Positions 31,654-51,347 of a DNA stretch of 64,000 nt are shown here, piece after piece (the first letter of the stretch is position 1; each line of letters opens with the position of its first letter). A program made the translations under genes and the position numbers. Source of the stretch: Candidatus Bathyarchaeota archaeon (GTDB lineage Archaea > Thermoproteota > Bathyarchaeia > Bathyarchaeales > Bathycorpusculaceae); NCBI GenBank assembly GCA_963775685.1, contig CAVZJV010000014.1, forward strand, positions 1,344,001-1,408,000, read 5' to 3'. The notes beneath the pieces were generated by a model. That model saw nothing but the letters and a program-made list of their open reading frames with translations, was not told the origin of the DNA and searched no databases.

Positions 31654-31710
31654 ATGAATACGAGGGATCGTCACCTCAATAGCTGGGATCGATGGGTACA
31701 AATTCTCTAA
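31654..31710 (+). promoter_or_regulatory. Candidate leader peptide of the ilvBN operon (MNTRDRHLNSWDRWVQIL*)
   Basis: ATG about 20 nt after TATA-like CTTTTAAAG; ends with Val-Gln-Ile-Leu codons; alternative hairpins between its stop and the ilvB RBS. Confidence 0.5.
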
Positions 31711-31803
31711 TTCGCTCAGGTTACCCTCTAAACAAACCACGAACTTTTCTCAGCTAATTTTTTCTGACGAAAGTATACGCTTTTCAACTTATAGGAGACT
31801 GAA

Positions 31804-33516
31804 TTGAAAATGGCTAAAATGTCTGGTGCACAAGCACTCTTAGAATCCCTAGAAAAACAAAACGTTGATACAATCTTCGGCATCTTAGGCGGAGCCATCC
31901 TCCCAGTCTATGATGCATTATGCGGCAACAAGAAAATACGTCATATCCTTGCAAGACACGAGCAATGCGCCGCCCACGAAGCCGAAGGTTACGCAAGAGC
32001 CAGTGGAAGAGCAGGCGTATGCATGGCAACAAGCGGTCCAGGAGCCACCAACCTTGTCACAGGCATCGCCAACGCCTACATGGACTCTTCCCCGATCATC
32101 GCCTTAACAGGCCAAGTGCCCTCAGAAGGCGCCAACACAAGCTATATGATTGGGCGAGATGCCTTTCAGGAAGCAGACATAATCGGCATCGTAACAGCGG
32201 TCACCAAATACAGTTACCAACCAAGAACAGTCGCAGAAATCCCAGTTGCAGTCAACAGCGCATTCCACATAGCAACCACAGGGAGACCAGGACCAGTGCT
32301 CATCGACTTACCCAAGAACATTCAAGCCGGAGTCGCAGACATCGAAATCACAGATAAAATCGATGCAGCAGGCTACAAATTAATAACCGAACCTGACCTT
32401 GCTAAAATCAGCGAAGCCTCCGACTTATTATCCAGAGCTGAATGCCCAATAATATTGGCAGGGGGCGGAGTCATAACCGCAGAGGCATCAAACGAAATAG
32501 TACAAATGTCAGACTTACTAATGGCGCCTGTCGCAACAACGTTTATGGGCAAAGGAGCCTTCCCAGAAACCCACCCCTTATCGCTGGGTAGCATAGGAAT
32601 GCATGGTAACCCGGCCGCCAACAAAATGATAAGCGAAGCAGATGTGCTACTGGCTGTAGGCACAAGATTCTCCGACCGAGCAACCGCAAATCTCGACACG
32701 TTCGCCCCGAACGCCAAGAAAATCCACATCGAAATTGACAATGCCGAAATCAACAAAAACATAGAAGTTGACGTGCCAATTGTCGCCGACGCAAAAGTCG
32801 CGTTGAAAATTTTGATCGCAGCAACCTCAAAGAAGCTTCAAAAAGGAGAAGGAAAGAACTGGTCTAAGCGTGTCAAAGAAGTCAAAGAACAGCTCAGCCC
32901 ACTGTTGAAGGATTTGCCAAGAGACGTGGTTCCCAAAGCTCTGCTAAGTGAACTAAGAAAACTGTTACCGGGGAACGCAATAGTCACAACTGAGGTGGGT
33001 CAGAACCAAATGTGGTCAGCCTTATACTTTCAAGCATTAAAGCCCCGGACGTTCATCAGCTCTGGCGGGCTTGGCACGATGGGATTCGGGTTCCCAGCGG
33101 CCATCGGCGCTAAAGTTGCATGCCCCAGTCGGCCAGTTGTGGACATCGCAGGCGACGGCAGCTTTATTATGAGCGAGCAGGAATTAGCGTGCTCAGTTAA
33201 CGAAGACATTCCTGTTACCGTCATCGTCCTAAACAATTCCGTCTTAGGGATGGTGGCGCAGTGGCAGCGTATGCTCTATAATCGCCGCTACATGGCAGTC
33301 AACTTGGGCAAAACACCAAACTTCGTTAAACTAGCAGAAGCATACGGAGCACAAGGCATAAGAGCAACCTCCATTGAGGAGTTCCAAAAGGCAGTTAAGA
33401 TAGCACTAACCAGTAAAGTAACCACGGTAATCGATGTGCCTATAGGCTCAGAAACTGATGTGGTTCCCTTTGTGCCTCCAGGCTGCGGTTTACCCCAACA
33501 GAGAGGTGACTACTAA
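31804..33516 (+). CDS. ilvB: Acetolactate synthase large subunit
   Basis: RHEQ, TSGPGATN, SGGLGTMGFG, GDGS ThDP motif, GMVAQWQ. Confidence 0.96.
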   Translation: MKMAKMSGAQALLESLEKQNVDTIFGILGGAILPVYDALCGNKKIRHILARHEQCAAHEAEGYARASGRAGVCMATSGPGATNLVTGIANAYMDSSPIIALTGQVPSEGANTSYMIGRDAFQEADIIGIVTAVTKYSYQPRTVAEIPVAVNSAFHIATTGRPGPVLIDLPKNIQAGVADIEITDKIDAAGYKLITEPDLAKISEASDLLSRAECPIILAGGGVITAEASNEIVQMSDLLMAPVATTFMGKGAFPETHPLSLGSIGMHGNPAANKMISEADVLLAVGTRFSDRATANLDTFAPNAKKIHIEIDNAEINKNIEVDVPIVADAKVALKILIAATSKKLQKGEGKNWSKRVKEVKEQLSPLLKDLPRDVVPKALLSELRKLLPGNAIVTTEVGQNQMWSALYFQALKPRTFISSGGLGTMGFGFPAAIGAKVACPSRPVVDIAGDGSFIMSEQELACSVNEDIPVTVIVLNNSVLGMVAQWQRMLYNRRYMAVNLGKTPNFVKLAEAYGAQGIRATSIEEFQKAVKIALTSKVTTVIDVPIGSETDVVPFVPPGCGLPQQRGDY

Positions 33517-34028
33517 TGGAAGCCGGAAAAACAAAAGTCATAAGCGTCCTGGTAGAAAACAAGCCGGGAGTTCTGCATCTCATCGCCAACCTATTCCGCC
33601 GCAGAAACTTTAACATCGAAAGCATCACCGTCGGACCCACCCAACAACCAACCATAGCTCGCATGACCATCACGGTCAACGAAGACGAAAAAACAATTGA
33701 CCAAGTCATCAAACAAGTCGCCAAACAAATCGATGTCCTCAAAGTAAGCGAACTCGAACAAGGCGGCTTTGTCATGCGTGAACTCGCACTCATAAAAGTC
33801 AAAGTCAACGACTCCAAAGAACGCAGCGACATCATCAACTTCGTAGAGGTTTTCCGCGGCAGAATCATCGACGTCTCAACCGACAGCTTAACCGTTGAAA
33901 TCACAGGAACCCCCGATAAAATCGATGCCTTCCTCAACCTCATGAAAACCTTCGGAATCATCGAATTAGCCAGAACAGGCATAACAGCCCTAGCCAGAGG
34001 AGCAAAATCAATAAAAATCGACCAATAA
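33516..34028 (+). CDS. ilvN: Acetolactate synthase regulatory subunit
   Basis: LVENKPGVL, FNIESITV ACT domain, ELARTG. Confidence 0.95.
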   Translation: MEAGKTKVISVLVENKPGVLHLIANLFRRRNFNIESITVGPTQQPTIARMTITVNEDEKTIDQVIKQVAKQIDVLKVSELEQGGFVMRELALIKVKVNDSKERSDIINFVEVFRGRIIDVSTDSLTVEITGTPDKIDAFLNLMKTFGIIELARTGITALARGAKSIKIDQ

Positions 34029-34127
34029 ATCGCATCAACAAAGCGGAAACCCTTAATTCCTTGTTCTTTTAAAAATCCCAATTATCACAAGTATCTTTAG
34101 ACTAATTTCGAGGATAAGCGACCAACA

Positions 34128-35396
34128 ATGAATATTACAGAAAAAATCTTGGCTAAAGCTTCAGGAAAAAAAGTCGTGCATCCAGGCGAAATCATCGATG
34201 CAAGCGTCGATATGGTTATGGTGCATGACTTAACTGGACCTTTGGCTGTCGAAGCTTTCAAAAAAATAGGCGTCCCAAAAGTGTGGGACAACAAAAAAGT
34301 AGTCGTAATTCTGGACCACCAGGTTCCTGCAGAATCTGTCAAAGCAGCAGAACTACACAAAACCATGAGGCAATTTACCAAAGACCAAAACCTCACATTA
34401 TACGATGTTGGTAGAGGCGGAATTTGCCACCAAGTTATGCCTGAAAAAGGACACGTGACCCCCGGCTCAGTCATCGTAGGAGCAGACAGCCACACCTGCA
34501 CCTACGGAGCATTCGGGGCGTTTGCGACAGGCATCGGCTCAACTGAAGCAGCAGCCGTTTTTGCTACGGGAAAAATCTGGTTCAAAGTTCCTCCAACAAT
34601 TAAAGTAAACGTAAAAGGCAGCTTCCCAAAGTATGTCACAGCAAAAGACCTAATCCTACACATTATTGGCAAACTAAGCGTGGATGGCGCCATATACAAA
34701 GCCGCCGAATTCACAGGGGCAACCATCAAAGACATGACCGTTGCAGGTCGAATGACTGTATGCAATATGGCTGTTGAGATGGGCGCCAAAAACGGCATAA
34801 TCGCACCCGATGAAACCACACACAAGTTCTTGGAGAGCAGAATCAAAGCCATGCCAGATTTCAAACCGTTGCAAAGCGACAAAGATGCGGTTTACGAGAA
34901 GATTGAAGAATTTGACGTTTCAAAGATGACGCCCCAAGTAGCTTGCCCATCGTCAGTGGACAATGTGAAGGCCGTCTCAGAAGTCGGCAACGTACCAATC
35001 GAGCAGGCATTCATCGGTTCCTGCACCAACGGCAGATTAGAAGATTTACGCTTAGCCGCCCAAGTCCTAAAAGGCAAAACCGTCAAGGAAGGCGTAAGGG
35101 CACTGGTGATTCCTGCTTCACAAGAAGTCTACCGCCAAGCCATGCAAGAAGGCTTACTGGAAATCTTCACCGATGCAGGCGCAATCGTTTGCGGGTCAGC
35201 GTGCGGACCCTGCCTAGGCGGGCACATTGGCTTGCTGGCAGCGGGCGAAACATGCGTCAGCAGTAGCAATCGCAACTTCATCGGCAGAATGGGCAGTACC
35301 CAAGCCAACGTCTACCTGGCTTCACCTGCAACGGTGGCAGCTTCAGCGGTTACAGGCAAATTAACCGACCCCACAACTCTGGAGGCAAAACCATGA
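34128..35396 (+). CDS. leuC: 3-isopropylmalate dehydratase large subunit
   Basis: GADSHTCT, FIGSCTNGR, CGPCLG, SNRNFIGRMG. Confidence 0.93.
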   Translation: MNITEKILAKASGKKVVHPGEIIDASVDMVMVHDLTGPLAVEAFKKIGVPKVWDNKKVVVILDHQVPAESVKAAELHKTMRQFTKDQNLTLYDVGRGGICHQVMPEKGHVTPGSVIVGADSHTCTYGAFGAFATGIGSTEAAAVFATGKIWFKVPPTIKVNVKGSFPKYVTAKDLILHIIGKLSVDGAIYKAAEFTGATIKDMTVAGRMTVCNMAVEMGAKNGIIAPDETTHKFLESRIKAMPDFKPLQSDKDAVYEKIEEFDVSKMTPQVACPSSVDNVKAVSEVGNVPIEQAFIGSCTNGRLEDLRLAAQVLKGKTVKEGVRALVIPASQEVYRQAMQEGLLEIFTDAGAIVCGSACGPCLGGHIGLLAAGETCVSSSNRNFIGRMGSTQANVYLASPATVAASAVTGKLTDPTTLEAKP

Positions 35397-35893
35397 ACAG
35401 CAAAATAAAAGCACCAGTTATAGTGTTCGGCAACAACATTGACACCGATGTCATCTTACCAGGCAAATACCTAATTCTAGTTGACCCCACCGAGTTGGGC
35501 AAACACGCATTAGAAAACTTAGACACCGAATTTGTAGCGAAGGCTAAAGGTGGCGTCATCTTAGTGGGCGGCAAAAACTTTGGCTGCGGGTCAAGCCGAG
35601 AACAAGCACCTCTGGCGCTGAAGTACTCAGGCGTAAAATGTGTCATCGCTGAATCGTTCGCCAGAATCTTCTTCCGAAACGCCATAAACATCGGCTTACC
35701 TGTCCTAGAATGCAAAGGCATATCCGACGCCGTTAAAACAGGTGACACCTTAGGCGTAGATTTTGAAGCAGGCAAGATAGAAAACACTTCCAACGGCAAA
35801 AAGTTTCAAGTAGACAAGCTTCCACCATTCATCTTAGAAATACTATCAGATGGCGGATTAATCGAAAATCTACGAAGGAAAATGAAAAAATGA
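35393..35893 (+). CDS. leuD: 3-isopropylmalate dehydratase small subunit
   Basis: NIDTDVILP, NFGCGSSREQA, SFARIFFRN. Confidence 0.93.
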   Translation: MNSKIKAPVIVFGNNIDTDVILPGKYLILVDPTELGKHALENLDTEFVAKAKGGVILVGGKNFGCGSSREQAPLALKYSGVKCVIAESFARIFFRNAINIGLPVLECKGISDAVKTGDTLGVDFEAGKIENTSNGKKFQVDKLPPFILEILSDGGLIENLRRKMKK

Positions 35894-36927
35894 CAGAATA
35901 CAAAATATCCCTAATTCCAGGCGACGGCATCGGACCAGAATTAACCGAAGCCACCCTAAAAGTCCTATACTCAGTTCAGAAAAAATTCGGCCTAAAACTA
36001 AAAATCATCGATGCTCCAGCAGGAGACATCGCACTTGAAACGCTTGGAGCCGCTCTCCCAGCAGACACTGTGGAAAAAATCAAAGATTCCCACGTCTGCC
36101 TGAAAGGTCCAGTTGGCGAATCTGCAGCAGCCGTCATAGTTAAACTCCGAATCATGTTTGACCTCTACGCTAACCTGCGCCCCCTCAAAGCCTACCCTAA
36201 CGTCAAAGTCGCCCATCCAGACATCGACATGTACTTTGTCCGCGAAAATACTGAGGACGTTTACAAGGGTTTAGAATTCACAATAGGCAACGACACCACA
36301 CTTTGCCTTCGAGTTATCACACGCAAGAATTGCGAACGTATTGCCAAAAAAGCATTCGAAATCGCACGTCTACGTAACGGCAAAAAGAAAGTCACCGCCA
36401 TCCACAAAGCCAACGTCATGCGCGTAACCGATGGCTTATTTGCCAGCGTCTGCCGCGAAACCGCAAAACAGTATCCAGACATCGCGTTTAACGAACTCTA
36501 CGTTGACGCAGCATCAATGCGATTAATCAAGGAACCAGAAATATTCGATGTGTTCTGCACTTGCAACATGTTCGGCGACATACTCAGCGATGAAGCCGCA
36601 CAGCAAATCGGCGGCTTAGGCATGGCCCCAGGCGCAAACATAGGCGACAACTTCGGTCTCTTTGAACCTATCCACGGCTCCGCACCAAACAGAGCAGGAA
36701 AACACACAGCCAATCCAATCTCCATGATACTCTCCGCTAAAATGATGCTAGAGTGGTTAGGAGAAAAATATGGCGACAAGAAATGCTTACAAGCAGGTGC
36801 AGCCATAGAGAAAGGAGTAATATACGCTTTAAGTAATGGTCAATCTGTTCCAGACTGCGGCGGCAAAACCACGACTGTTGGGATGGCGGAAGCTATTGCT
36901 GAGGCGTTAACCGTTAAAAGTGGCTGA
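35890..36927 (+). CDS. leuB: 3-isopropylmalate dehydrogenase
   Basis: GDGIGPE, RENTED, NMFGDILSD, EPIHGSAP; operon context. Confidence 0.88.
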   Translation: MTEYKISLIPGDGIGPELTEATLKVLYSVQKKFGLKLKIIDAPAGDIALETLGAALPADTVEKIKDSHVCLKGPVGESAAAVIVKLRIMFDLYANLRPLKAYPNVKVAHPDIDMYFVRENTEDVYKGLEFTIGNDTTLCLRVITRKNCERIAKKAFEIARLRNGKKKVTAIHKANVMRVTDGLFASVCRETAKQYPDIAFNELYVDAASMRLIKEPEIFDVFCTCNMFGDILSDEAAQQIGGLGMAPGANIGDNFGLFEPIHGSAPNRAGKHTANPISMILSAKMMLEWLGEKYGDKKCLQAGAAIEKGVIYALSNGQSVPDCGGKTTTVGMAEAIAEALTVKSG

Positions 36928-38461: not shown

Positions 38462-39273
38462 CAACCGTAGCCTTCCAAGGCGAACCGGGCGCATATAGCG
38501 AATCGGCAGTATACCAGTTCTTTGGCTCAAAAGTTCAAGTTAAACCATGCATGGACTTCCGAGACGTTTTCGAGAGTGTAAAGAAGCATGAAGTTCAAGC
38601 TGGTATGGTACCAGTCGAGAATTCCCTTGAAGGCAGCGTCAATCAAAACTACGACTTATTCTTCAATTATGACCTTAAAGTTTTCGGCGAAGTAATAGTA
38701 AAAATAGCACATTGCCTAATCGTCAACCCTGGAACAAACATAGACCAAATCAGATTAGTGTACTCCCATCCGCAAGCTTTAGCGCAATGCCGAAGTTACT
38801 TGGAAAAATCAAAGTGGGAAATTATCCCAACCTACGACACTGCTGGAAGTGTAAAAATAATCAAGGAACAAAAGCTCATAAACGCCGCAGCCATAGCTAG
38901 CGAGAGAGCAGCCGAAATCTACAGCATGGAAATCCTTGCCAAAGACATTGCAGATAACAAAGAAAACTTCACCCGTTTCTTTGTCTTATCCAAAGAAGAT
39001 TCGGCTCCAACTGGAAAGGATAAAACCTCAGTTATCTTCTCAGCAAAACATGAGCCTGGCTCGCTCTACCATGCACTGGGAGAATTCGCAAAAAGAAAAA
39101 TCAATCTAACCAGAATCGAATCAAGACCAACCAAGAAAACTGCATGGGAATACAACTTTTACCTTGATTTTGAAGGACATAGAACTGAGCCTAAATGCGA
39201 TGAAGCCCTAAAAGCTCTTGAGAAATATGCGATTTTCGTCAAAATCTTGGGCTCATATCCTAAAGCTGTTTAG
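38458..39273 (+). CDS. pheA: Prephenate dehydratase
   Basis: FQGEPGAYS, ENSLEGSV, SHPQALAQC, NFTRF, IESRP ACT domain. Confidence 0.95.
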   Translation: MTTVAFQGEPGAYSESAVYQFFGSKVQVKPCMDFRDVFESVKKHEVQAGMVPVENSLEGSVNQNYDLFFNYDLKVFGEVIVKIAHCLIVNPGTNIDQIRLVYSHPQALAQCRSYLEKSKWEIIPTYDTAGSVKIIKEQKLINAAAIASERAAEIYSMEILAKDIADNKENFTRFFVLSKEDSAPTGKDKTSVIFSAKHEPGSLYHALGEFAKRKINLTRIESRPTKKTAWEYNFYLDFEGHRTEPKCDEALKALEKYAIFVKILGSYPKAV

Positions 39274-39336
39274 TTATTTCCTTTTCCCTCTTTTAGACGG
39301 TATAGTTGAAACTTAATTTATTGATTTATCCAAGTA

Positions 39337-39645: not shown

Positions 39646-39714
39646 CCAATAATAAAAAATGATTTTAATTACTTTTGTCTTTCTGTCAGGCTTTATCTTC
39701 AGGCGAAAGAGTGA

Positions 39715-40431: not shown

Positions 40432-40517
40432 GTTTGTTTAAGCTCTGTTGTTGGCACTAAATAGATTTTGCGTTTCAACCAAAAAACAATTCGCCAAACA
40501 ACTCGATAAGCCGAAGG

Positions 40518-41084: not shown

Positions 41085-41957
41085 TTATTTTTCTGTGGAT
41101 TCCAGCATTTTATACATGGTTTCATAGGATTCGGCAAAGTCGCAGTCGAATTCTTTAAGCTTCTTTTTTAGCCGCTCCATTCGGTTGACGATTGCTTTCG
41201 TGTCTTTGTTTTTAATTAAGGTGAGCAGTTCTTGGGCTTTAGCCATGAAGGTATCTTCGATTTTGTCCAATTCCTGCAGGTTCGTTTGTACGGCAGCGTA
41301 GAGATCGGGGGTTTCCATCGCCGTTGCTTCTGCCAGCGTGAAGAGCATTCGGTAGGTGGTGCCTGCTACTTTTTTGGTTTCGTGCAAGTTTTTCTGTTCC
41401 AGCAAGGTTTCGCATGCTACTAAGCCTAAAAAGTGTGGCAGTCCCAAAACTACTGACATTAATTCATCATGCTTCTTGGGAGTCATAATGAAAACGTGTG
41501 CTTCTTCCTTCTCGAGCAACTGCTTGAATTTTTCCGCAAACTCATGTTCTTTCGCATTCGTTGGAGTCAAGACATATGCCTTGTGTTTGACGCCGTTACT
41601 TCCCGGACCAAAAACAGGGTGCGTACCCAACACCGTTGCTTCTTTGATGTATTGGTGCATGGTGTTAACGGGTGTTTCCTTTATCGAGGCTATGTCAATG
41701 ACAACCTGTCCTTTATGCAATACTGGGCTGATTGTTTTAACGACCTCTTCGATGGCGTTTATGGATACACAAAGGTAAATTTGGTCGGCCTCTTGGACGG
41801 CTTCTTGAAAGTTCGTGGTTAAATCAACAAGTAAGTCTTTCAGATTTTCGAGTTTCTCTTTTTTTCTATCCGCTAAAATTACATCGTAATCTTTTGAGAG
41901 GAAAAATTTGGCGAACCAAACGCCCATTTTCCCCGCGCCGATTACGGCAACCCTCAT
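41085..41957 (-). CDS. tyrA: Prephenate dehydrogenase
   Basis: GAGKMG Rossmann motif, DIASIK, THPVFGP, HDELMSVVLGLPH. Confidence 0.93.
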   Translation of the reverse strand: MRVAVIGAGKMGVWFAKFFLSKDYDVILADRKKEKLENLKDLLVDLTTNFQEAVQEADQIYLCVSINAIEEVVKTISPVLHKGQVVIDIASIKETPVNTMHQYIKEATVLGTHPVFGPGSNGVKHKAYVLTPTNAKEHEFAEKFKQLLEKEEAHVFIMTPKKHDELMSVVLGLPHFLGLVACETLLEQKNLHETKKVAGTTYRMLFTLAEATAMETPDLYAAVQTNLQELDKIEDTFMAKAQELLTLIKNKDTKAIVNRMERLKKKLKEFDCDFAESYETMYKMLESTEK

Positions 41958-43033
41958 TTATTGACCTCGCAGATTTTATTCAGCCCTGTCTCGATTTGGT
42001 CGTCTGGAGCGGTTAGAGAAATGCGAAAGTGTTCAGGGTAGTTACCAAATGATGTGCCTGGAGCAACAGCAACGCCTTTGTCAAGTAGGTCTAGTGTGAA
42101 CTTTTCGCCGTCTAAACCTTCGAGCTTAGGAAACACATAAAATGGCGCGTCGGGTTTAGTGAATTTGAATCCTGCGGCGGAGAGTTTGGTACAGGCTAGG
42201 TCTGCGCGTTGTTTGTATTTTGCTTTGATGGCAGATGCAATTTGCTTGTGAAGTTCTAAGCCTTTAAGGGCGGCGTCCTGAATGAAGACTGGAATGTTGT
42301 TGATGGTGATTTGGTTGAGTTTGGTTATGTTATCTATGACCATTTTGTTTGCTACCAGGTAGCCGATGCGCCAACCAGTCATGGTGAAGGTCTTTGAGAA
42401 ACCGTTGGAGAGGATATGTTTGCATTCACCGTCGTAGTCGAGTATGCTTTTGGTTTTCACAAAGCTGATTGCTCCATAGACTTCGTCGGAGAGGATAGTA
42501 ACTCCTTTCTGGTTAGCTAATTCGACGACGCCGTCGAGAGTTTTGGAGTCCATGACTTTGCTTGTAGGATTGTTTGGGTTGTTGAGAATAATCATTTTTG
42601 TGTCTTTGTCAATTAAGCTCTCAAGCTTGTCGAGGTCAATTTTCCAACCTTCTGCCATTTCCGTCGGCAGCAGCTTGGTTTTCGCGCCAAGGCTCTTTGC
42701 GATTAAATCGTAAGCTGTCCAGTATGGCGTGGGGATGATAACGTTACCTCCGTTTTTGAGCATCAAAAACATCGTGGAGAATATTCCCCATTTAGAACCT
42801 GGCGTTATCACGACGTTTTCTGCTTCAACGCCGTGTACTTCAGCGATTTTCTGCCGTAGCCTAAGCTCACCATAAGAAGAGGCATACTTAGTTTTGCCTG
42901 CCTTCATTGAAGCGTATGCTGCTTCGACGATTTCAGGCGGCGTAGCCATATCTGGGTCACCAAGGTTTAGTCGAATGATTTTTTTTCCTTCACTTTCCAG
43001 TTTAAGGGCTTTCTCGTTTATCTCATAGAGCAT
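41954..43033 (-). CDS. Class I/II PLP-dependent aminotransferase (probable aromatic aminotransferase)
   Basis: NNPNNPT, DEVY, FSKTFTMTGWRIGY; ATG at 43033; operon context. Confidence 0.9.
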   Translation of the reverse strand: MLYEINEKALKLESEGKKIIRLNLGDPDMATPPEIVEAAYASMKAGKTKYASSYGELRLRQKIAEVHGVEAENVVITPGSKWGIFSTMFLMLKNGGNVIIPTPYWTAYDLIAKSLGAKTKLLPTEMAEGWKIDLDKLESLIDKDTKMIILNNPNNPTSKVMDSKTLDGVVELANQKGVTILSDEVYGAISFVKTKSILDYDGECKHILSNGFSKTFTMTGWRIGYLVANKMVIDNITKLNQITINNIPVFIQDAALKGLELHKQIASAIKAKYKQRADLACTKLSAAGFKFTKPDAPFYVFPKLEGLDGEKFTLDLLDKGVAVAPGTSFGNYPEHFRISLTAPDDQIETGLNKICEVNK

Positions 43034-43061
43034 ACAGTTTGGACTCTCCGTTAGGAGCGCT

Positions 43062-43322
43062 TTATTCTTGAACGGCAATGCACATATTAACTATTTCGCG
43101 GTAAACCGCTTCTACTTGACTAGAATTAAGACCTAATTGGGAGGTTTTGTCTTTTACGCGCTTGTAAACATCATTTTCTCTAGACTTATCTCGAATGGGT
43201 TTACCCTGTTTTTTCTTGGCGGCCCCGATTGCTTTGCAAATCTTTACCCGTTCGCAGAGGGCAATTAGAATTTGGTTGTCGATTTCATCAACCTGTTTTC
43301 TTAGCAAGGGGATTTCGTTCAT
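43062..43322 (-). CDS. aroQ: Chorismate mutase (AroQ type)
   Basis: LRKQVDEID...ER...IGAAK...IRDKSRE. Confidence 0.9.
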   Translation of the reverse strand: MNEIPLLRKQVDEIDNQILIALCERVKICKAIGAAKKKQGKPIRDKSRENDVYKRVKDKTSQLGLNSSQVEAVYREIVNMCIAVQE

Positions 43323-43324
43323 GG

Positions 43325-44431
43325 TTAGTGCTCCTTGAGGACTTTTGGTATGTACCCAGCGCGGATGAGGTGGTCAGCTAAGGTTATGGCGGTTGCTGCT
43401 TCGATGGCGAGCACAGCTTTTGGAACCACACAAGGGTCGTGTCTACCTTTAACGCTTAGAGCGGAATTTTCCATCGTGCACATGTTAACGGTTTTCTGTT
43501 CCTTGGAAATGGAGGGTGTGGGTTTTATCGCTACTCTGATCAGGATTGGCATTCCGCTTGACAATCCGCCCAAGATGCCGCCTGCGTTCTCGGTTGAAGT
43601 GGCAACCTTGCCTTTTTTGATAAGGAAGGCGTCGTTGTTCTCTGACCCCCGCAACTTCGCAGCGTCAAAGCCAGCACCGAACTCGACACCTTTCACTGCA
43701 GGGACAGCAAACATCGCCTTTGCTAAATCTGCATCCAATGAGTCAAACGACGGCTCACCAATTCCAACAGGCATGTTGAGCGCTGCACATTCCACTATAC
43801 CGCCTAAACTGTCCCCTTCTTTTTTAGCTTCAACAATGGCTTCCTCCATCTTTCCTGCGCAAACTAAGTCAGGGCACCGAGTTGCAGCTAAATATCGATT
43901 TTTGCGGATTTCCGAAGTTCTAAACTTTCTATCAGTCTTGACGTTACCGATGGCTAAGGTGTATGCCAAAACATCAATGTTGTATCTTCCGAGCAGTTTT
44001 TTGGCTATTGTGCCAGCCATTATGAGTGCAACTGTGACTCTTCCTGAGAAGCGCCCTCCGCCACGGTGGTCGTTAAAGCCTCCGTATTTAATTCGCGCCG
44101 GATAATCAGAGTGCCCAGGTCTTGGCAAATCCTTTATTGCCTCATAATCGCTTGGCTGAGTTTCCTTATTCTCCACCATCAAGGCGATTGGAGCCCCAGT
44201 GGTGAATCCGTTGAAAAATCCACTTAGGATTTTGGCAACGTCTTTCTCGACTCGCTCAGAAACAATCTTGGACTCCGCTGGAATTCTGCGATCAAGGTCC
44301 TCCTGAAAATCAGCTTCCGAAAGCGGCAAGCCTGCTGGGCAGCCATCCACAACTACTCCGATTACTTTGCCATGGCTCTCCCCAAACGTGGCAACTGTGA
44401 ATTCTTTACCTATCGAATTTCCCGCCAACAA
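43325..44431 (-). CDS. aroC: Chorismate synthase
   Basis: TFGESHG, PRPGHSD, KGVEFG, GRHDPC. Confidence 0.96.
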   Translation of the reverse strand: MLAGNSIGKEFTVATFGESHGKVIGVVVDGCPAGLPLSEADFQEDLDRRIPAESKIVSERVEKDVAKILSGFFNGFTTGAPIALMVENKETQPSDYEAIKDLPRPGHSDYPARIKYGGFNDHRGGGRFSGRVTVALIMAGTIAKKLLGRYNIDVLAYTLAIGNVKTDRKFRTSEIRKNRYLAATRCPDLVCAGKMEEAIVEAKKEGDSLGGIVECAALNMPVGIGEPSFDSLDADLAKAMFAVPAVKGVEFGAGFDAAKLRGSENNDAFLIKKGKVATSTENAGGILGGLSSGMPILIRVAIKPTPSISKEQKTVNMCTMENSALSVKGRHDPCVVPKAVLAIEAATAITLADHLIRAGYIPKVLKEH

Positions 44432-45701
44432 CGTTAGCTCCTATTTGTCTTAGATGAGTGAAGAACTGCGGATAAGACTTTCTGACGCACTCTGCGTTTT
44501 GAATTGTGGTTTCTCCTTCGGCGCCTAAAGCGGCGATTGTGCATGCCATGGCGATTCGATGGTCGTTGTGTGGATCGATGGTTACTCCATGCAAGCGGTT
44601 GCTGCCCTCGATGAGTAAGCCGTCGTTTTCTAAGCCGATTTGAGCGCCCATCTTTGAGAGTTCAGCAAATAACGATTGGAGCCTATCTGACTCCTTGAAC
44701 CTAAGCCTTTGTGCGCCGAAAATGTGAGAAGTGCCTTTTGCGTAGCATGCGAGAGCGGCGATGGCTGGAACAAGGTCAGGAATGTTTTTGGCATCTACTT
44801 CTACGGGTGTAAGTGGAGTTCCTGAACCTTCAATTTCAACGTTGTCCACGCAGACTTTTCCGTTGACGCCCATGTGCTTTAAGGTGCCTATAATCGCTTT
44901 GTCTCCCTGAACGGTCTCGTAGTCAAGGTTGCTAATTTGAACATTCGAGGTAGTTATTGCTGCAGCGGCTAAGAGAAAAGCAGCGGAGGAGAAATCGCCT
45001 GGAACTCTGCCATCTTGGGGTGTGTAGGTTTGGTTCGCTGGGATATGAATGTGGTTTTCATGGGCAGGCACCCTAATTCCATGGTGAACAAGCACTGCCT
45101 CGGTCATTTTAACGTAATCTGCAGATTCCAACGGCGAAGTCAGCATTATTTCCGTGTCCACTTCGGCCATTGGACAAGCAAACATCAAGCCAGAAATAAA
45201 CTGTGAACTCACATCGCCCGCAACGGAAGTCTCGCCGCCAACAATGCCGCCGCCCTCCACAAAAACCGCGTCTTTGTCACCAAGTTTTCCAACGCGCACT
45301 TTGGCGCCGAGTTCTTTGAGGCTAGCTAAAAGTGGTTCCACAGGTCGCTTCTCAATAGAGCCCCTAAACACCAAAGTAGAAGAACCATCTGCCAGCGCAG
45401 CTACGGGAATCATGAAACGCAATGTTGCCCCTGACTCTCTGCAGTCAATTGGTTCTTTTGCGCTCTTAAGCGCTGTGCCTTCGATTGTCCAGCAACCTTC
45501 CGCAGTCTTGACTTTTGCCCCTAAAGCAGTGACTGCCCCAAGCGTGGCTTCGGTATCATCTGACAAAAGAGGATTAGAAACTTTTGAAACTCCATGGGAA
45601 AGTGCAGCGGCTATTACCATTCGTTGAGTATAAGACTTAGATGACGGCGCACAAACTTGCCCGCTTAACTTTTCAGTTTTTTTAATTGTTACATCTGTCA
45701 T
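44406..45701 (-). CDS. aroA: EPSP synthase
   Basis: SKSYTQR, ESGATLRF, SSQFISG, KESDR, DHRIAM, KSYPQF. Confidence 0.96.
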   Translation of the reverse strand: MTDVTIKKTEKLSGQVCAPSSKSYTQRMVIAAALSHGVSKVSNPLLSDDTEATLGAVTALGAKVKTAEGCWTIEGTALKSAKEPIDCRESGATLRFMIPVAALADGSSTLVFRGSIEKRPVEPLLASLKELGAKVRVGKLGDKDAVFVEGGGIVGGETSVAGDVSSQFISGLMFACPMAEVDTEIMLTSPLESADYVKMTEAVLVHHGIRVPAHENHIHIPANQTYTPQDGRVPGDFSSAAFLLAAAAITTSNVQISNLDYETVQGDKAIIGTLKHMGVNGKVCVDNVEIEGSGTPLTPVEVDAKNIPDLVPAIAALACYAKGTSHIFGAQRLRFKESDRLQSLFAELSKMGAQIGLENDGLLIEGSNRLHGVTIDPHNDHRIAMACTIAALGAEGETTIQNAECVRKSYPQFFTHLRQIGANVVGGKFDR

Positions 45702-45703
45702 TG

Positions 45704-46576
45704 TTAGAGCACCTTTGCTTTTTCACTGTTCAACTGTGCCTGAATTATTTCGCCGTCATACCTTTCCAAAGCAGCCTTCACTGCATCTAACTTGTCAGTT
45801 GGAACTACTGCGGAAACAGCAGGTCCTTTGCCGCAAAGCCCAGTCGCTACGGCTCCAGCAGCCAACGCATCTATCGCGATTGTGGTGTTGAGGTTTGAGG
45901 CTGAAGAGTAGATTAAACCGTTAAGCGTTAATGCCTCCCAAACTTTTCCTTCCAAAGCCTTGTCGAATGCGATTTGTACGAGCGGTTTAACAGTTTTGAG
46001 CCTGTTCACATTTGAGTCAGCCGTGTAGGCTTTTTGGGGTGGAACATGAAACAACACTGTTAAATCCTTAGGTAAGGGTAGCTGTTTGATGATTTCACGT
46101 TTGAAGTTATCGGTAATTACTATGCCGCCAAAATAGGATGCACACGCATCATCAAAAGCGCCAGTAACTGTGACCTTTGAATCAAAAGCAGCATCGACAC
46201 CCAACTTTACAATTTCCAAATCATCAAGAGGTTTGCCAAGTGCCGCCGTTGTTGCAAGTGCGGTGGCGTTTGCTGCTACGCTGCTGCTTTTAAGTCCTTT
46301 AGCGATTGGGATGTTTGATAGGGTTTTTATTTTTGCGCCAAAACTTTTGTCTAAACCAAACCTTTGCAGAACTCTTGCCGCGGTTTTTTCTATTAGGAGC
46401 GTGCTTTCTTTTGGGTCTGAAACTATCTCAGCCCTAATAACGCCTAGTTCATCCATTAAATTAACTTCAGCTCTGGTCCACAAATCAACCCCAAACGCTG
46501 CACCCTTACCCAGCGCAATCGCGTTCACGATGGTTGCAGCCCCATGAGCAATCGCTACACCTCTACCCGTTGCCAC
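45704..46576 (-). CDS. aroK: Archaeal shikimate kinase (GHMP family)
   Basis: ATIVNAIA, IPIAKGLKSSS, VTGAFDDA. Confidence 0.93.
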   Translation of the reverse strand: MATGRGVAIAHGAATIVNAIALGKGAAFGVDLWTRAEVNLMDELGVIRAEIVSDPKESTLLIEKTAARVLQRFGLDKSFGAKIKTLSNIPIAKGLKSSSVAANATALATTAALGKPLDDLEIVKLGVDAAFDSKVTVTGAFDDACASYFGGIVITDNFKREIIKQLPLPKDLTVLFHVPPQKAYTADSNVNRLKTVKPLVQIAFDKALEGKVWEALTLNGLIYSSASNLNTTIAIDALAAGAVATGLCGKGPAVSAVVPTDKLDAVKAALERYDGEIIQAQLNSEKAKVL

Positions 46577-46579
46577 AGT

Positions 46580-47437
46580 TTACACCTTCATCAAATAATT
46601 AAGCGCCGCCTGCCTCATAACTTCAACTGGAGCAGACTTACCTGTCCAAAGTTCAAACGACGCTGCACCTTGATAAATCAACATCTCAACCCCGCTGACC
46701 ACCTTAGCTCCCGCAGCTTTCGCCTCATTAACAAGTTTGGTCTCAAGCGGATTGTATACTATATCCATCACAGACAAATCCGGTCTTAAAAGTTTAGGAT
46801 TTACAAGGCTTTCGTCTGCTTTTGGTTTCATCCCAATTGAAGTAGCATTTATGAGAATGTCAGAGTCTTGGAGGTTCTGTTGGATTTCTTTTGGTGAAAG
46901 GGAACCTGCAACTATTTTTTTGTTCGCAGTCTTTTCAAGCAGTCTGGCTAATCCTTGAGCTTGTTTTACGGTTCGGTTCAGGACCGCGAGTTCATCGGCT
47001 TCTTTAGCCATCGTGTACGCTATGGCTCTTGCAGCTCCGCCTGCACCCAGCAACAGAACCTTTCTGCCCTTCGGCTCCACTCCATTTTCTCTTAGAGCTT
47101 TTAGGGCGCCTACGCCATCTGTGTTGAAGCCGAAAAGTTTGCTATCCTTATTTAGGATTGTATTGACCGAATTTATGATTTGAGCAGATAGGTCTGTTCG
47201 GTCTAAATACTTCAACACTGTACTTTTATGCGGCATAGTTACGTTTAAGCCCCGTAGGTTTAGGGCGCGCATGCCATTTACTGCGTTTTCCACTGCATTT
47301 AGCTTTACTTTGAAAGCTAAAAATGCATAGTCAAGGTTGAGAGCGTTAAAGGCTGCATTGTGTATAATGGGGCTCAAGGTATGCTCTATTGGGTCACCGA
47401 TGACTCCGCAAACCCTAGTTTTCCCCGTAATAGGCAT
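46580..47437 (-). CDS. aroE: Shikimate dehydrogenase
   Basis: GDPIEHTLSP, NVTMPHK, NTDG, GAGGAARA, DIVYNP. Confidence 0.96.
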   Translation of the reverse strand: MPITGKTRVCGVIGDPIEHTLSPIIHNAAFNALNLDYAFLAFKVKLNAVENAVNGMRALNLRGLNVTMPHKSTVLKYLDRTDLSAQIINSVNTILNKDSKLFGFNTDGVGALKALRENGVEPKGRKVLLLGAGGAARAIAYTMAKEADELAVLNRTVKQAQGLARLLEKTANKKIVAGSLSPKEIQQNLQDSDILINATSIGMKPKADESLVNPKLLRPDLSVMDIVYNPLETKLVNEAKAAGAKVVSGVEMLIYQGAASFELWTGKSAPVEVMRQAALNYLMKV

Positions 47438-48120
47438 TATTTTATCCCCAAAAGTCCATAAGCAGTGCGCATTTCGGTTATGCTCATCTGCCCAGCCGCG
47501 GTTTCACTGTCAGGCTCAACCGAGGCGAAAGTGAAGAAAGCGCCAAATGCAGGTGAAAGCAACCTTGAGATTTTGCCTTGATCGCCCATGCAGAAGCAAA
47601 CCAGCTTTGCCTTGGCTGAAGCAAAGGAAACAAAGTTCAGAATAGGCAGGTTGTCTTCAACTTGTTTTGCTGTGAGCACGATTTTGCAGACGCTCGCCCC
47701 GCTGGCAATCTCCTCGTCAAGGATCTTTTCCATGGTAGAAACTGCTAAAAGTCCATCATAATTATGATAAGAAACGATGGGTTTTGCCCCTAGAGCTCGT
47801 AGTTTTCCAATTGTTTCGTCCCGTTTAGGGCTGGAAAAATCAACATCCACATATTCGAAGCCATTTTTGGCCGCATCAATAAGGGTCTGTTGACGTTCAA
47901 TTTCGGTTCCTGAAAAGTAACCTTTTTCGTTTTTGAGTTTGTTTGTAGCGATAAAGGGCAGTTTTGTGCTTTTGGCGAAGTCTTGTAGGTTTCGTGATTC
48001 TTCGAGGTAATCGAGACGAACTTCTACGAGGTCTGCTTGGGAACTCTCTGCCTTCTCAATGAGCTTTAGCGCTTCCGCCATGTTTTTTGGGAGAATCGAA
48101 ACACAGATTCTCACAGTCAC
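47437..48120 (-). CDS. aroD: Type I 3-dehydroquinate dehydratase
   Basis: EVRLDY, IVSYHNY, MGDQGKISR, TAAGQ. Confidence 0.92.
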   Translation of the reverse strand: MTVRICVSILPKNMAEALKLIEKAESSQADLVEVRLDYLEESRNLQDFAKSTKLPFIATNKLKNEKGYFSGTEIERQQTLIDAAKNGFEYVDVDFSSPKRDETIGKLRALGAKPIVSYHNYDGLLAVSTMEKILDEEIASGASVCKIVLTAKQVEDNLPILNFVSFASAKAKLVCFCMGDQGKISRLLSPAFGAFFTFASVEPDSETAAGQMSITEMRTAYGLLGIK

Positions 48121-49157
48121 TTTTCAATCACCGTTTCTTCAGGCACAGATATGCCGAAGTGTCTTCCTCCCTTCGCAGCTAAATGCACAAGAACTTCATC
48201 GTTGGGTTTGAGTTCGGTAACTGGTTTTGAGCCTTTAGACGTGACTATGCGTATGGTTTCTGCATTCTGCAAGATAGTTTTAATTTTGGTGCCGTCGGCC
48301 TCGGCTTCGATGAGGATGAGTGGACGGAACTCGATTTTGGATCTACCCACGTTTGTGATTCGGACATTACCTTCTCGACTAACGATTAGAACTTCGTCAC
48401 CAGCTTTGAGTTCAGAGAGGTAGCGTGTACCCTGAATGGAGGTTAAGGTGTACTGAGATGCTGGTCCAGCGTTCACTCGGAAAGGCCTGGATTGCACGTA
48501 GGGGTTCTCGTTAACTTCAGCCTCAACAAGGAAGAACCCTGCGGATTGGCATCCGACAAGCATCCCTTCACCTGGAACCATCAAATCAACAGTGTCTACA
48601 CAGACGCGTGCACCTGAGCCGATGGGTTTAATGGACAAGATTTTGGCTGTGGTAATCGACATTTTGGGCATTTGATTCTTGACGAGCTTGATGGTTTTTT
48701 CCAGCTCAGCTACGTTTCTGGTCTTTAGCAAAACACCGTCTGTGCCCAATTCAAGAGCTTCCAAAACCAACTTAGCATCCTCAGCCGTGGTCACCTCTGC
48801 GATTAGGGTGCTTTTTCCTCTGCCTTTGGCTATGAGGTTTTCAAGCGGAATCACTCGCCAATCTTGACAGTTTATTATGACATAGTCAACGCCAAGTTCA
48901 GCGGCTTTGGCTGCCCTGTTTTCGTCTTCTTTACCTTGGATTATTACTTTTAAGGCTGTTTTTTTGCCCTCTACCTTTAGCTGGGCAATTTTTTTCTCGC
49001 TCAAGTCAGTGAGAAAAATAATTTCCATTTTGCCTTGGCGGTTGCTGGCTTGGTCGCCATCCAAGATCGCGTCTGCGTTTTCATGGGCAAGGCTAAGTAA
49101 ACCTTCCTTTTCTTGAGCGGAAGCATTTTGTGGAATTTCGAGCCAGAGTTCTTTCAA
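48117..49157 (-). CDS. 3-dehydroquinate synthase II (AroB')
   Basis: WRVIPLENLIA, RVCVDT, RPFRVNAG, LQNAETIR, GRHFG. Confidence 0.94.
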   Translation of the reverse strand: MKELWLEIPQNASAQEKEGLLSLAHENADAILDGDQASNRQGKMEIIFLTDLSEKKIAQLKVEGKKTALKVIIQGKEDENRAAKAAELGVDYVIINCQDWRVIPLENLIAKGRGKSTLIAEVTTAEDAKLVLEALELGTDGVLLKTRNVAELEKTIKLVKNQMPKMSITTAKILSIKPIGSGARVCVDTVDLMVPGEGMLVGCQSAGFFLVEAEVNENPYVQSRPFRVNAGPASQYTLTSIQGTRYLSELKAGDEVLIVSREGNVRITNVGRSKIEFRPLILIEAEADGTKIKTILQNAETIRIVTSKGSKPVTELKPNDEVLVHLAAKGGRHFGISVPEETVIEK

Positions 49158-49945
49158 TATTTTTCACCAAAAATCTTTAGCGCTTGCTCAACAGATGCAC
49201 CTTTGTGGACAATGGCAGAGAGCGCTCTTGAAATTTGTGTTGGATTGTCGCATTGGAACATGTTACGTCCAATGGAAAGCCCTGCTGCACCTGCTTCCAA
49301 GGCGTCGCTGGTGGTTTGAAGCACTTCCTCTAGGGAATTGCATTTTGGTCCACCTGCAATAACAACTGGGATTGGGCAACTTTCGATGACTGCTTTGAAA
49401 GTTTCGATGCTTCCTGTGTAGTTTGTTTTGATTATGTCTGCGCCAAGTTCTGCGCCGATTCTCGCTGCATGCGCCACCAATTCGGGTGAATGTTCGTTTG
49501 GGATTTTTGGTCCACGCGGGTACATCATCGCTAAGAGAGGAACACCAAAGGCTTCGCATTCTTCGGCGACTTTGCCTAGGTTTTGTAGCATTTTATCTTC
49601 GTCTTGAGCGCCGACGTTGACATGAACGGATACTGCGTCTGCGCCGATGCGTATGGCTTCTTGCACGCTGCATACTTGGACCTTGCCGTTTACGTTGGGG
49701 CTAAGGTTTGACATGCCAGATAACATTACGATTAAGCCTGCGTCTCCGGTGTCGACTCGTTTGGCGATGCCTTTGTGGACAAGGATGGCATCAACTCCAC
49801 CTTTCACAAGCTGGTTGGTTATGGTTTGCATGTTAGTTATGCCTTGGATGGGCCCAACTGTTACACCATGATCCATAGGTACAATTACTGTGCGGTTGTC
49901 TTGCTGCATGATTTTTTTTAGTCTGCGGGTTTTGCCTTCATTCAT
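49154..49945 (-). CDS. 2-amino-3,7-dideoxy-D-threo-hept-6-ulosonate (ADH) synthase (AroA', DhnA-type aldolase)
   Basis: PMDHG, AMMYPRG, GADIIKT, IAGGPK, GRNMFQ; adjacent to AroB'. Confidence 0.92.
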   Translation of the reverse strand: MNEGKTRRLKKIMQQDNRTVIVPMDHGVTVGPIQGITNMQTITNQLVKGGVDAILVHKGIAKRVDTGDAGLIVMLSGMSNLSPNVNGKVQVCSVQEAIRIGADAVSVHVNVGAQDEDKMLQNLGKVAEECEAFGVPLLAMMYPRGPKIPNEHSPELVAHAARIGAELGADIIKTNYTGSIETFKAVIESCPIPVVIAGGPKCNSLEEVLQTTSDALEAGAAGLSIGRNMFQCDNPTQISRALSAIVHKGASVEQALKIFGEKY

Positions 49946-49957
49946 GTCTTTTCCACT

Positions 49958-51202
49958 CTAATGTTGTTTAAGTGAGTTTTTAATTAACTTTAATGCTTTC
50001 TCTTTCTCATTCCAATCTACAAACAGCAAAATGCTCGACGTAATAGTTAGGATGCCAGAGATGTTTATGCCGTTAAGGCGTAAATCCTCACTGATTTTGC
50101 CGATGATGCCATGCGTTTCCTCCAAGCCCACACCGCTGGTTTTGATGAAGACAAGGTCCTTTTTAACTGCCATAGCTATGGTTTCTTCGTTGCCGATAGT
50201 TATATTGTGGATTTGGTTGAAGAGGACATCGATATTTTTCACCTGCGGCACATAGAGAATGATTGAGTTTGTGTTCATAGACATGCCCAATAACATCGAG
50301 TTTTCCTTAACTCTCTCAACCATCTCGGTGATAACTTTAGTATTAGCAGACATACCGTTTCCGATAACGGTGATTTCCGCCACAGGGGTAGGATGAGCAA
50401 TTTCCGCGTCAAGTTCGGTGCCTAATCCACCGGTGATGATTGTCCCTGCACGACTCAAATCGCCATGAGCATTGCTGATGACTTTAACATCGATATCTTT
50501 TGGCTTGTATTTGAGAGCTTTACTGTGAATAAATTTTGCACCTGAATCTGCTAAGCCAACAAGCGTATTTACGTTGATTGTTGGGAGAAGTTTGGGCGAA
50601 GCAATTATTTTCGGGTCGCCAGACATTATGCCATCTGCATTCGTTACCAGCACAACTTGGTTTGCATTTAAGCCCTGTGCCAGCAAGAACGCAGTAGTGT
50701 CGCTTCCGCCTCTGCCAAGGGTAGTAATTTTGCCATCTTTCGTTTTGCCCACGAATCCAGCTATGACCGGTACGGTTCCTGCCTCAACAAGCGGAAGGAT
50801 GCATTCCTTAATATTTTTCTCGCATTCCTTGACAAGGGGGTTGGCGTTCTGGAACGAGTCATCAGTGATTATTGGCCACTTACTGTCCATGGGGTCAAAG
50901 TAACAAGCATCAACACCATTGTTCCGAAGAGCAGTCGCAAAGATTCGTACACTTGTGCGTTCACCCATCGACAAAATGTCATCTAACTCCTGTTTAGCTA
51001 ATTTTCCGTTCGAAGTGTTCTTTGCGGTAATCAATAGCACATCGGTTGTTTTCCCCATGGCTGAAACTGCTACAGCGATTTTTGTACCTTTTTTGGCTTC
51101 ATTCACCACTGCCTTGACCGCTTTTAGAAGTCTTTCGTGATCAGATAGGCTGGAGCCGCCAAATTTAACGACAATGGTTTGGTTAGAGGAATGTTTTGCC
51201 AT
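49958..51202 (-). CDS. Aspartate kinase
   Basis: VVKFGGSS, VSAMGKTTD, TTLGRGGSDTTA, C-terminal ACT-like domains; ATG at 51202 (alternative 51217). Confidence 0.9.
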   Translation of the reverse strand: MAKHSSNQTIVVKFGGSSLSDHERLLKAVKAVVNEAKKGTKIAVAVSAMGKTTDVLLITAKNTSNGKLAKQELDDILSMGERTSVRIFATALRNNGVDACYFDPMDSKWPIITDDSFQNANPLVKECEKNIKECILPLVEAGTVPVIAGFVGKTKDGKITTLGRGGSDTTAFLLAQGLNANQVVLVTNADGIMSGDPKIIASPKLLPTINVNTLVGLADSGAKFIHSKALKYKPKDIDVKVISNAHGDLSRAGTIITGGLGTELDAEIAHPTPVAEITVIGNGMSANTKVITEMVERVKENSMLLGMSMNTNSIILYVPQVKNIDVLFNQIHNITIGNEETIAMAVKKDLVFIKTSGVGLEETHGIIGKISEDLRLNGINISGILTITSSILLFVDWNEKEKALKLIKNSLKQH

Positions 51203-51222
51203 ATGTTTTACACCCATGTTTT

Positions 51223-51260
51223 GCCCAGAACTTTTCTTAAAAATTTTTTCAGTTCTGGGC
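51223..51260 (-). promoter_or_regulatory. Perfect 10-bp hairpin GCCCAGAACT/AGTTCTGGGC directly after the leader stop codon
   Basis: Inverted repeat 51223-51232 / 51251-51260; the 18-nt loop contains AAAAAATTTTT. Confidence 0.75.
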
Positions 51261-51347
51261 TTAAGGAAAATGGTAATAATAAAAGCAGTAATCGAAGCTC
51301 TGGAACGGCGCCGCATTGCCTGAGACTATGTTTTTTGCATTGAACAT
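51261..51347 (-). CDS. Phe/Tyr-rich leader peptide of the aromatic amino-acid operon (MFNAKNIVSGNAAPFQSFDYCFYYYHFP*)
   Basis: 28 codons with 5 Phe and 4 Tyr, 8 of them in the last 14; lies between a BRE/TATA-like element and the first operon gene. Confidence 0.8.
   Translation of the reverse strand: MFNAKNIVSGNAAPFQSFDYCFYYYHFP

Follow-up and report, generated by a model that had tools for sequence, protein, structure and literature searches.

Two leader reading frames ahead of the ilv-leu and aromatic operons of a Bathyarchaeia genome as candidate ribosome-read sensors of tRNA charging

How archaea match the synthesis of amino acids to their supply is largely unknown. The question is raised here by two divergent operons of a Candidatus Bathyarchaeota archaeon, each headed by a small upstream open reading frame (uORF) that contains codons cognate to the operon. 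Both operons lie within a stretch of 64,000 nt (positions 1,344,001 to 1,408,000 of contig CAVZJV010000014.1, assembly GCA_963775685.1), referred to below as the window; the host genome is 3.06 Mb in 14 contigs. The uORF ahead of ilvB and the branched-chain genes is called leader A, and the one ahead of the aromatic (aro) operon is called leader B. A first-pass annotation had described in both leaders cognate codons near the C-terminus, a pairing segment beginning at the base after the stop codon, a U-tract enclosed between this segment and its partner, and a competing pairing for the 3' segment, and had read them as one shared architecture. All of these features are present at their described positions in the window and both small ORFs are conserved. 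The architecture common to the two holds in this genome alone, as the post-stop helix, U-tract and C-terminal codons of leader A are not conserved; conserved in leader A instead are an internal hexamer resembling a Shine-Dalgarno (SD) sequence, one cognate codon at a fixed place and an open +1 frame leading to ilvB. Sensing of amino acids by a translating ribosome is the best reading of both leaders, because both uORFs are conserved, lie 5' of biosynthetic operons and carry cognate codons. On balance we consider it probable that both serve as translated reporters of cognate tRNA charging, leader A as a +1 frameshift sensor resembling that of prfB and leader B as a classical multi-codon sensor.

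Leader A belongs to a family with a simple layout. A start codon is followed by an SD-like hexamer, a 3-nt spacer, one further codon and then the cognate codon, which is codon 6. The start codon with the AGG GAT core is also found 5' of hisG in this genome, and 5' of ilvB and hisG in other families, and a pattern search in 251 genomes of the order gave matches in 208. When the downstream genes were named with Pfam and NCBIfam, the members of the family proved to precede ilvB, leuC, cimA/leuA, hisG, trpE and, once, thrS. Codon 6 was counted at hisG, trpE and ilvB locus sets that were collected through protein homology and not through the motif. Among 100 unique hisG loci, 85 have a motif uORF and 82 of these 85 have His at codon 6, written both as CAT and as CAC, after a start codon that is ATG in 57, GTG in 14 and TTG in 14. 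Codon 6 is Trp in 21 of the 22 motif-bearing leaders from 24 trpE loci, and Leu or Val in all 28 motif-bearing leaders from 30 ilvB loci (Leu 24, Val 4). The single thrS leader (TIGR00418, 538 bits) has Thr. The hexamers AGGGAT, TGGGAT and GGTGAT fit the SD consensus that follows from the 3' end of the 16S rRNA, GGATCACCTCCT. Codons 2-3 are AGGGAT, or GGTGAT in many trp leaders; the match is perfect for GGTGAT[C] in many trpE leaders and includes a one-base gap for AGGGAT. Ahead of the leader itself, other families have SD-like sequences 5-10 nt 5' of the start codon. Three trpE loci of family f11 (L339, L333 and L334) are exceptions, one having TAG for TGG at codon 6 and two being without the motif or the Trp codon.

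The frame that a +1 shift at the cognate codon would enter was followed to the main gene at each set of loci. Before ilvB it is open to +3 to +29 nt of the projected start in 35 of 35 loci, compared with 2 of 35 for the +2 control and none of 35 for frame 0. The open stretch amounts to 43-60 codons in these 35 ilvB loci and in 10 of 11 leuC loci, and at 10 of the 11 leuC loci the +1 ORF ends at 157-166 nt while the gene starts at 156-165. At trpE the +1 frame coincides with that of the enzyme and stays open at least 90 nt into the gene (21 of 21); it is likewise the enzyme ORF at cimA/leuA (8 of 8) and the enzyme's own frame at the one thrS locus. The hisG leaders are more elaborate. A single shift gets to the start in just 3 of 86, while the +1 peptide IQGDC[LVI]H brings another SD-like unit, with its His codon, into frame in 82 of 86, and a second shift at this second unit gets to the start in 79 of 86. 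That a first +1 shift would bring the second his unit into frame explains why this unit appeared out of frame. The P-site codon of the his leaders is GTT in 77, ATT in 7 and CTT in 2, and in some units of the family the P-site codons are good +1 slip sites (GTT-T, TGG-G, CGG-G, GAA-A).

Within the genus of the window, for which 23 genomes were compared, the sequence from the SD of the leader A uORF through two repeats of GGGATCGTC is near-invariant. A 16-codon core, MRDRHLNSWDRRVxxx*, is present in 23 of 23 genomes, with TAA (16) or TGA (7) in the stop column. The genome studied here has ACG at the conserved start (31660), and its place is taken by an ATG lying in frame two codons earlier (31654-31662, + strand); such an upstream ATG occurs in about 9 of the 23 genomes, and with it the sensor codons here become codons 8 and 15. 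The two units of leader A, with Leu and Val as their sensor codons, have the same spacing and the same frame (Table 1), and comparable second units, RNRF[IL] and MGDRFI, occur in other families. Both sensor codons open into one +1 frame, in which the ORF list of the window contains no ATG-, GTG- or TTG-started ORF of at least 20 amino acids.

From its sequence, leader A is best explained as sensing the charging of Leu and Val tRNAs through a frameshift. A ribosome would start at the uORF, and the hexamer, located 3 nt behind the P-site codon, would pair with the 16S tail as the Leu or Val codon enters the A site. With charged tRNA plentiful, frame 0 would be read to its TAA, about 100 nt before ilvB, and expression of the operon would be low. 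With charged tRNA scarce, the ribosome would slip +1, read 43 codons and end at the TGA located 2 nt before the ilvB ATG, leading to translation of ilvB by coupling at the junction, and the nascent RNA would stay covered by ribosomes. The anatomy, its conservation and the open frames are observed; that the ribosome shifts frame, that ilvB translation is coupled and in which direction the operon is regulated are inferred.

The other features described for leader A are particular to this genome. Its post-stop segment can pair with a partner 44 nt downstream, and the ilvB start lies 33-39 nt beyond the pairing; the pairing is stronger here than in shuffled sequence (-8.4 versus -4.7), while across the 23 genus genomes its mean is -3.32 kcal/mol compared with -3.33 for shuffled controls. 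A T-run of at least 5 is found in the spacer of 11 of the 23. The last three codons are variable, with 11 different tails and Ile, Leu or Val at 17 of 33 positions, and at least three of these residues in the last four codons are found in 142 of 3110 random uORFs of this genome. The claims of C-terminal cognate codons, of pairing from the base after the stop and of an enclosed U-tract therefore fail for leader A as conserved features.

Leader B presents a different picture. Its relatives were collected by way of aspartate-kinase orthologues, the aspartate kinase being the first gene of the aro operon, from 40 relatives and from named genomes, giving 72 unique leaders. An ATG-started uORF with a Phe/Tyr-rich tail is present at 27 of 27 close orthologous loci and 57 of 57 loci from the named genomes (84 of 84), and no uORF of this type was found at three loci having just an aspartate-kinase paralogue (32-37% identity). 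Seven of the last 12 codons of leader B are Phe or Tyr, which ranks it first among the 3110 upstream small ORFs of this genome; the claim of C-terminal cognate codons thus stands for this leader. Across the 72 leaders 63% of the last 12 codons encode Phe or Tyr, and both synonymous codons are used for each (TAT 196, TAC 119, TTT 141, TTC 89). There are 53 distinct tails, with a mean pairwise identity of 0.40 in the tail and 0.14 in the preceding 12 residues. Upstream, RNAalifold predicts a helix between the 5' untranslated region (UTR) and the codons S-F-D, each position of which is paired in 60-67 of 68 sequences, with no compensatory changes.

The conserved core of this multi-codon leader includes a hairpin that abuts its stop codon. 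In the window the hairpin has 10 bp, with the 5' arm (51260-51251) beginning at the first base past the TAA, the 3' arm at 51232-51223, a T5 run in the loop (51243-51239) and the ATG of the aspartate kinase (51202) 20 nt beyond the 3' arm. A post-stop hairpin exists at 72 of 72 unique loci in three families, starting exactly after the stop in 55 and within -3 to +5 overall, and the two other families have unrelated stem sequences at this position; the described pairing from the base after the stop is accordingly a lasting feature of leader B. The enclosed U-tract was borne out in part, the loop having at least 5 T in 54 of 72 loci and 4 or fewer in 18, among them whole clades and other families (3 or fewer in 9). 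Within the genus no U-tract lies 3' of the hairpin. In Candidatus Bathyarchaeum (L025/L107), unlike the window's genus, a T5 run comes straight after the aro-leader hairpin and is itself followed by the SD, which is a layout like that of a bacterial terminator.

A ribosome clearing the Phe/Tyr run would have to melt this hairpin, which starts just past the stop, while one stalled in the run would leave it folded, the folded form being assumed to be the "on" state. The 3' arm, once freed, may carry the signal from hairpin to kinase by masking the SD, which is the prediction for two other families; alternatively the signal may be termination at the loop U-tract. The 3' arm is rich in pyrimidines and resembles an anti-SD at loci L026 and L106, and there masking of the 5' arm cuts the predicted SD accessibility from 0.55 to 0.07 and from 0.76 to 0.14, respectively. 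Alternative pairings of either arm are not above shuffled controls, save for a weak complementarity between the 5' arm and the SD (-7.08 versus -6.02). A frameshift reading was also tried for leader B and rejected; the +1 frame is open beyond the hairpin in 50 of 72 loci and the +2 frame in 39 of 72, and there is therefore no frameshift signal. The aspartate-kinase frame in the window (49958-51316, - strand) is open for 38 codons 5' of its ATG, across the hairpin and into the Phe/Tyr run, and corresponds to the +1 frame of leader B; other members of the genus do not consistently keep it open.

Other accounts of leader A differ in what they ask of the ribosome. A ribosome might merely stall at codon 6, held there by the internal hexamer, without any frameshift, blocking re-initiation and freeing the SD of the uORF, which would then pair with a downstream CCUCU (helix P1) and release the ilvB ribosome-binding site. 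In its favour, RNAalifold predicts helices P1 (AGAGG:CCTCT), P2 and P3 from the 23 genus sequences, and also a UUCUC:GGAGA pairing that involves the ilvB SD; P3 shows a single compensatory change, from G-C to A-U. The distance of 6 nt from hexamer to codon is also inside the range of real SD-to-start spacings (GGTGA plus 4-7 nt). Stalling alone leaves unexplained why the +1 frame is open over so many codons before ilvB and leuC, why it is in frame with the enzyme at trpE, cimA and thrS, and why the second His unit lies in it, and we regard this account as unlikely. Alternatively, leader A may be a structured RNA that is not translated (for instance a riboswitch, a sensor of tRNA like the T-box, or a site bound by a protein), with the ORF and its codon as by-products of the conservation of the RNA. 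The first 13 codons are near-invariant at all three codon positions in the genus, most changes are non-synonymous and the second UUCAU unit of the his leaders lies outside frame 0, all of which would suit such an RNA. It is hard to reconcile with the alternation of ATG, GTG and TTG at one position downstream of an SD-like sequence, with the occurrence of both His codons at codon 6, with a codon that tracks the amino acid of the operon (His, Trp, Thr, Leu/Val), with the conserved frames and with the absence of Rfam matches for leader A, and we hold it to be highly improbable.

The mechanism put forward in the first-pass annotation was that of a single design for both leaders, in which the 5' arm is covered by a ribosome that has reached the stop, exposing the U-tract to intrinsic or aCPSF1/FttA-dependent termination, while a stalled ribosome leads to read-through. 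Its anatomy exists in the window for both leaders, and at leader B the abutting hairpin is universal and the T-rich loop is frequent. Neither the pairing nor the T-run of leader A is conserved, the T-run of leader B is short in whole clades and other families, and the competing pairing is not conserved either. In addition, RNA polymerase would be past the T-run before the 3' arm is made, and the hairpin could therefore not act on intrinsic termination there. We judge this model unlikely. As for leader B, the hairpin might do no more than stabilize the mRNA or insulate against re-initiation, or the peptide rich in Phe and Tyr might itself be functional, with no sensing of amino acids involved; neither the modelling of SD accessibility nor the tests of alternative pairings yielded a mechanism from hairpin to gene. 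The enrichment in Phe and Tyr is specific to the operon of the aromatic pathway, Phe and Tyr interchange within 53 distinct tails while the N-terminal half is unconserved, and the hairpin is kept against the stop across families with unrelated stems. These observations argue for sensing, and an account without it has, in our opinion, very little chance of being right.

Several findings weigh against the sensing interpretation of the two leaders. For leader A, the P-site of unit 1 in the window, CAC-C, is a poor slip site. The hisG leader of this genome (L136, C14:1660079-1660244, - strand, outside the window) has the His motif with both units, but its doubly shifted frame ends 32 nt before hisG, in contrast to 80 of 86 relatives. 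The motif is missing in 15 of 100 hisG loci and in the trpE operon of this genus. At trpE, thrS and cimA the stretch that needs to be open is short, about 15-20 codons, and these enzymes could start at an internal start codon instead. The codon-6 counts are slightly biased, since the match with the cognate codon was chosen where a locus had multiple motif matches, and the relatives are non-independent, so that the counts overstate the evidence. For leader B, there is no covariation in the stems within the genus, because the stems are invariant there. In this genome a strong pairing competes for the 3' arm (-12.3 versus -8.5 kcal/mol for shuffled sequence), but it averages -7.76 versus -7.54 over 72 loci and is thus not conserved. 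A quarter of the loci lack a loop U-tract of at least 5 T, and a model of SD masking in the genus was rejected, as with the 5' arm masked the predicted accessibility goes up at 28 and down at 17 of 72 loci (mean 0.35 versus 0.39).

Further candidates were sought around the family. Besides those of ilv and his, nhmmer searches with the leader cores gave no other copy in this genome, except for one marginal hairpin (E = 0.017). This lone hairpin (C14:970589-970646, - strand, outside the window) is like helix P2 of leader A, with TGAGG, an 8-nt loop beginning GATC and CCTCA; it follows a TATA-like box and has no recognised downstream gene. No cognate leader was found in the trpE and hom operons of this genome. 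Nine other uORFs of the MRD/MRG type in this genome were checked and all precede unrelated genes; the motif by itself is therefore insufficient. The leader-like sequence L259 lies 5' of a LysW-type kinase; its codon 6 is Leu and its +1 frame is unrelated, and it was treated as a chance match. The uORF L166 (MRGRFHH..., C14:268775, - strand, outside the window) has His at codons 6 and 7 and lies 137 nt 5' of a P-type ATPase; it may be due to chance or be a leader related to metal or His. A genome-wide scan for uORFs with runs of a single amino acid gave 10 top matches that were checked, all before unrelated genes. A covariation of start codon and His codon, considered as evidence for a hairpin, failed in the larger locus set. 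The strict his-type pattern is common in the family (17 of 25) and present in other families of the order, is near the background of a reversed pattern elsewhere in the phylum, and outside the class occurs in 11 of about 341 genomes versus 5 for the reversed control (uninspected hits).

The proposed sensors share traits with several known systems. In the prfB frameshift site the spacing from SD to P-site is 3 nt. The site consists of an SD, a CUUU slip site and a UGA stop, as a passage of PMC10798248 describes it. The likeness to the leader A family is an internal SD just 5' of the P-site codon, which is slippery in some units of the family, followed by a slowly decoded A-site codon. In both cases making the product or pathway by which the slow step is relieved would require the +1 shift. 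Codon 6 of the leader A family would be the slowly decoded one, from its being cognate. Unlike in prfB, the slow codon is not a stop but a sense codon that matches the amino acid, or the tRNA synthetase, served by the downstream gene, the site lies in a leader of 6-23 codons in an archaeal host, and the frameshift is predicted from sequence. The ribosome would, after the shift, end at the main start (ilvB, leuC, hisG) or enter the enzyme (trpE, cimA, thrS), and the his leaders would need two shifts.

The enterobacterial attenuators (pheL/pheA, trpL, hisL, ilvL and leuL) are similar in having a short ORF with cognate codons before the operon and a ribosome position coupled to RNA folding, and in its Phe/Tyr run leader B is like pheL. 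They differ in that the leaders described here are without the terminator hairpin and following U-tract and without a conserved anti-terminator alternative; the hairpin of leader B abuts the stop, and leader A has one codon per unit and no run. The translational attenuation of ermC and cat, in which a ribosome stalled in the leader sets a hairpin over the next ribosome-binding site, fits leader B in L026 and L106, although the trigger would be tRNA charging and not an antibiotic, and masking of the SD is not predicted for the window's genus. As in a T-box, a single "specifier" codon in the leader A family corresponds to the amino acid of the regulated gene, and the genes include biosynthetic operons and a tRNA synthetase gene. 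In contrast to a T-box, the codon would be read by a ribosome, given the start codon, SD and frames, and the leader has neither Stem I nor a T-box sequence, nor any Rfam match; E-value scans of both leaders against Rfam gave only chance-level matches to unrelated families. Full-text literature searches (supplements excluded) on archaeal leader peptides, attenuation and programmed frameshifting returned no archaeal equivalent of attenuation or T-boxes and no report of such a sensor, and for leader peptides and attenuation gave bacterial or unrelated work only. For archaeal frameshifting, one -1 case is mentioned in a passage of a 2021 review (PMC8211752).

The positions of the leaders and their operons are given in Table 1. 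The genes of the aro operon, according to Pfam, are in order aspartate kinase, aroA', aroB', aroD, aroE, archaeal shikimate kinase, aroA and aroC, followed by chorismate mutase, an aminotransferase and tyrA (to 41085). The aspartate kinase (49958-51202, - strand) matches NCBIfam NF005159 with 383.5 bits, barely over the cut-off of 379. It leads the aromatic operon ahead of aroA' and aroB', and a second and a third aspartate-kinase-like gene are located elsewhere in the genome. Its place at the head of the operon fits the aspartate-semialdehyde-dependent 6-deoxy-5-ketofructose 1-phosphate (DKFP) route to dehydroquinate. The pheA gene (prephenate dehydratase, 38458-39273, + strand) ends the ilv/leu operon rather than lying in the aro operon, and Phe is present in several of the leader A tails of the genus.

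Table 1. Features of the two leaders and their operons in the window (BRE, B recognition element)
Feature	Position	Strand	Remarks
Leader A TATA-like block	31601..31612	+	T-rich, conserved about 45 nt 5' of uORF in 23 genus genomes; putative promoter
Leader A uORF SD, AAGAGG	31647..31652	+	23/23 genus loci, 7 nt before conserved start
Leader A frame-0 uORF, MNTRDRHLNSWDRWVQIL*	31654-31710	+	Ends V-Q-I-L; TAA 31708-10
Leader A unit 1	31663..31677	+	AGGGAT 31663-68, 3-nt spacer, P-site CAC 31672-74, sensor Leu CTC 31675-77
Leader A unit 2	31684..31698	+	TGGGAT 31684-89, spacer, P-site TGG 31693-95, sensor Val GTA 31696-98
Leader A +1 frame	31676..31807	+	43 sense codons, no canonical start; TGA 31805-31807, 2 nt before ilvB ATG
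Leader A post-stop pairing, 31711-19 with 31764-71	31711..31771	+	Encloses T6 31758-63; present here, not conserved
ilvB SD, AGGAGA	31793-98	+	
Conserved ilvB start, ATG	31810	+	Genus alignment
ilvB-ilvN-leuC-leuD-leuB-leuA/cimA-pheA operon	31810-39273	+	Pfam
aro operon with its SD	41085..51215	-	Pfam
Aspartate-kinase SD, GGGTG	51215-11	-	Gene ATG at 51202
Leader B post-stop hairpin	51223..51260	-	-18.1 kcal/mol; hairpin in 72/72 unique loci
Leader B uORF, MFNAKNIVSGNAAPFQSFDYCFYYYHFP*	51347-51261	-	Phe/Tyr run at 51296-51264
Leader B 5' UTR strand pairing with codons S-F-D (51299-51292)	51351..51361	-	RNAalifold, 68 sequences
Leader B BRE/TATA-like block, CGAAACGCTTATATTTT	51384..51400	-	Almost invariant at 23 genus loci; putative promoter

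Taken beyond this genome, the leader A family may represent a general sensor of tRNA charging in the Bathyarchaeia, a reading to which we give an even chance. A ribosome tethered by the hexamer would slip +1 at one specifier codon and thereby activate branched-chain, His and Trp synthesis as well as at least one tRNA synthetase gene; the trpE, cimA/leuA and thrS enzymes would be frameshift products, and the two shifts of the his leaders would give a steep response. If this is true, the general +1 sensor would be an archaeal counterpart of bacterial attenuation and T-boxes. Gene calling would also change, as some trpE, cimA and thrS products would begin in the leader, in another frame. A conserved, sequence-defined sensor with a predictable read-out, namely a trans-frame peptide and a dependence on hexamer, spacing and codon, would make the question of how amino-acid synthesis follows supply in these archaea directly testable.

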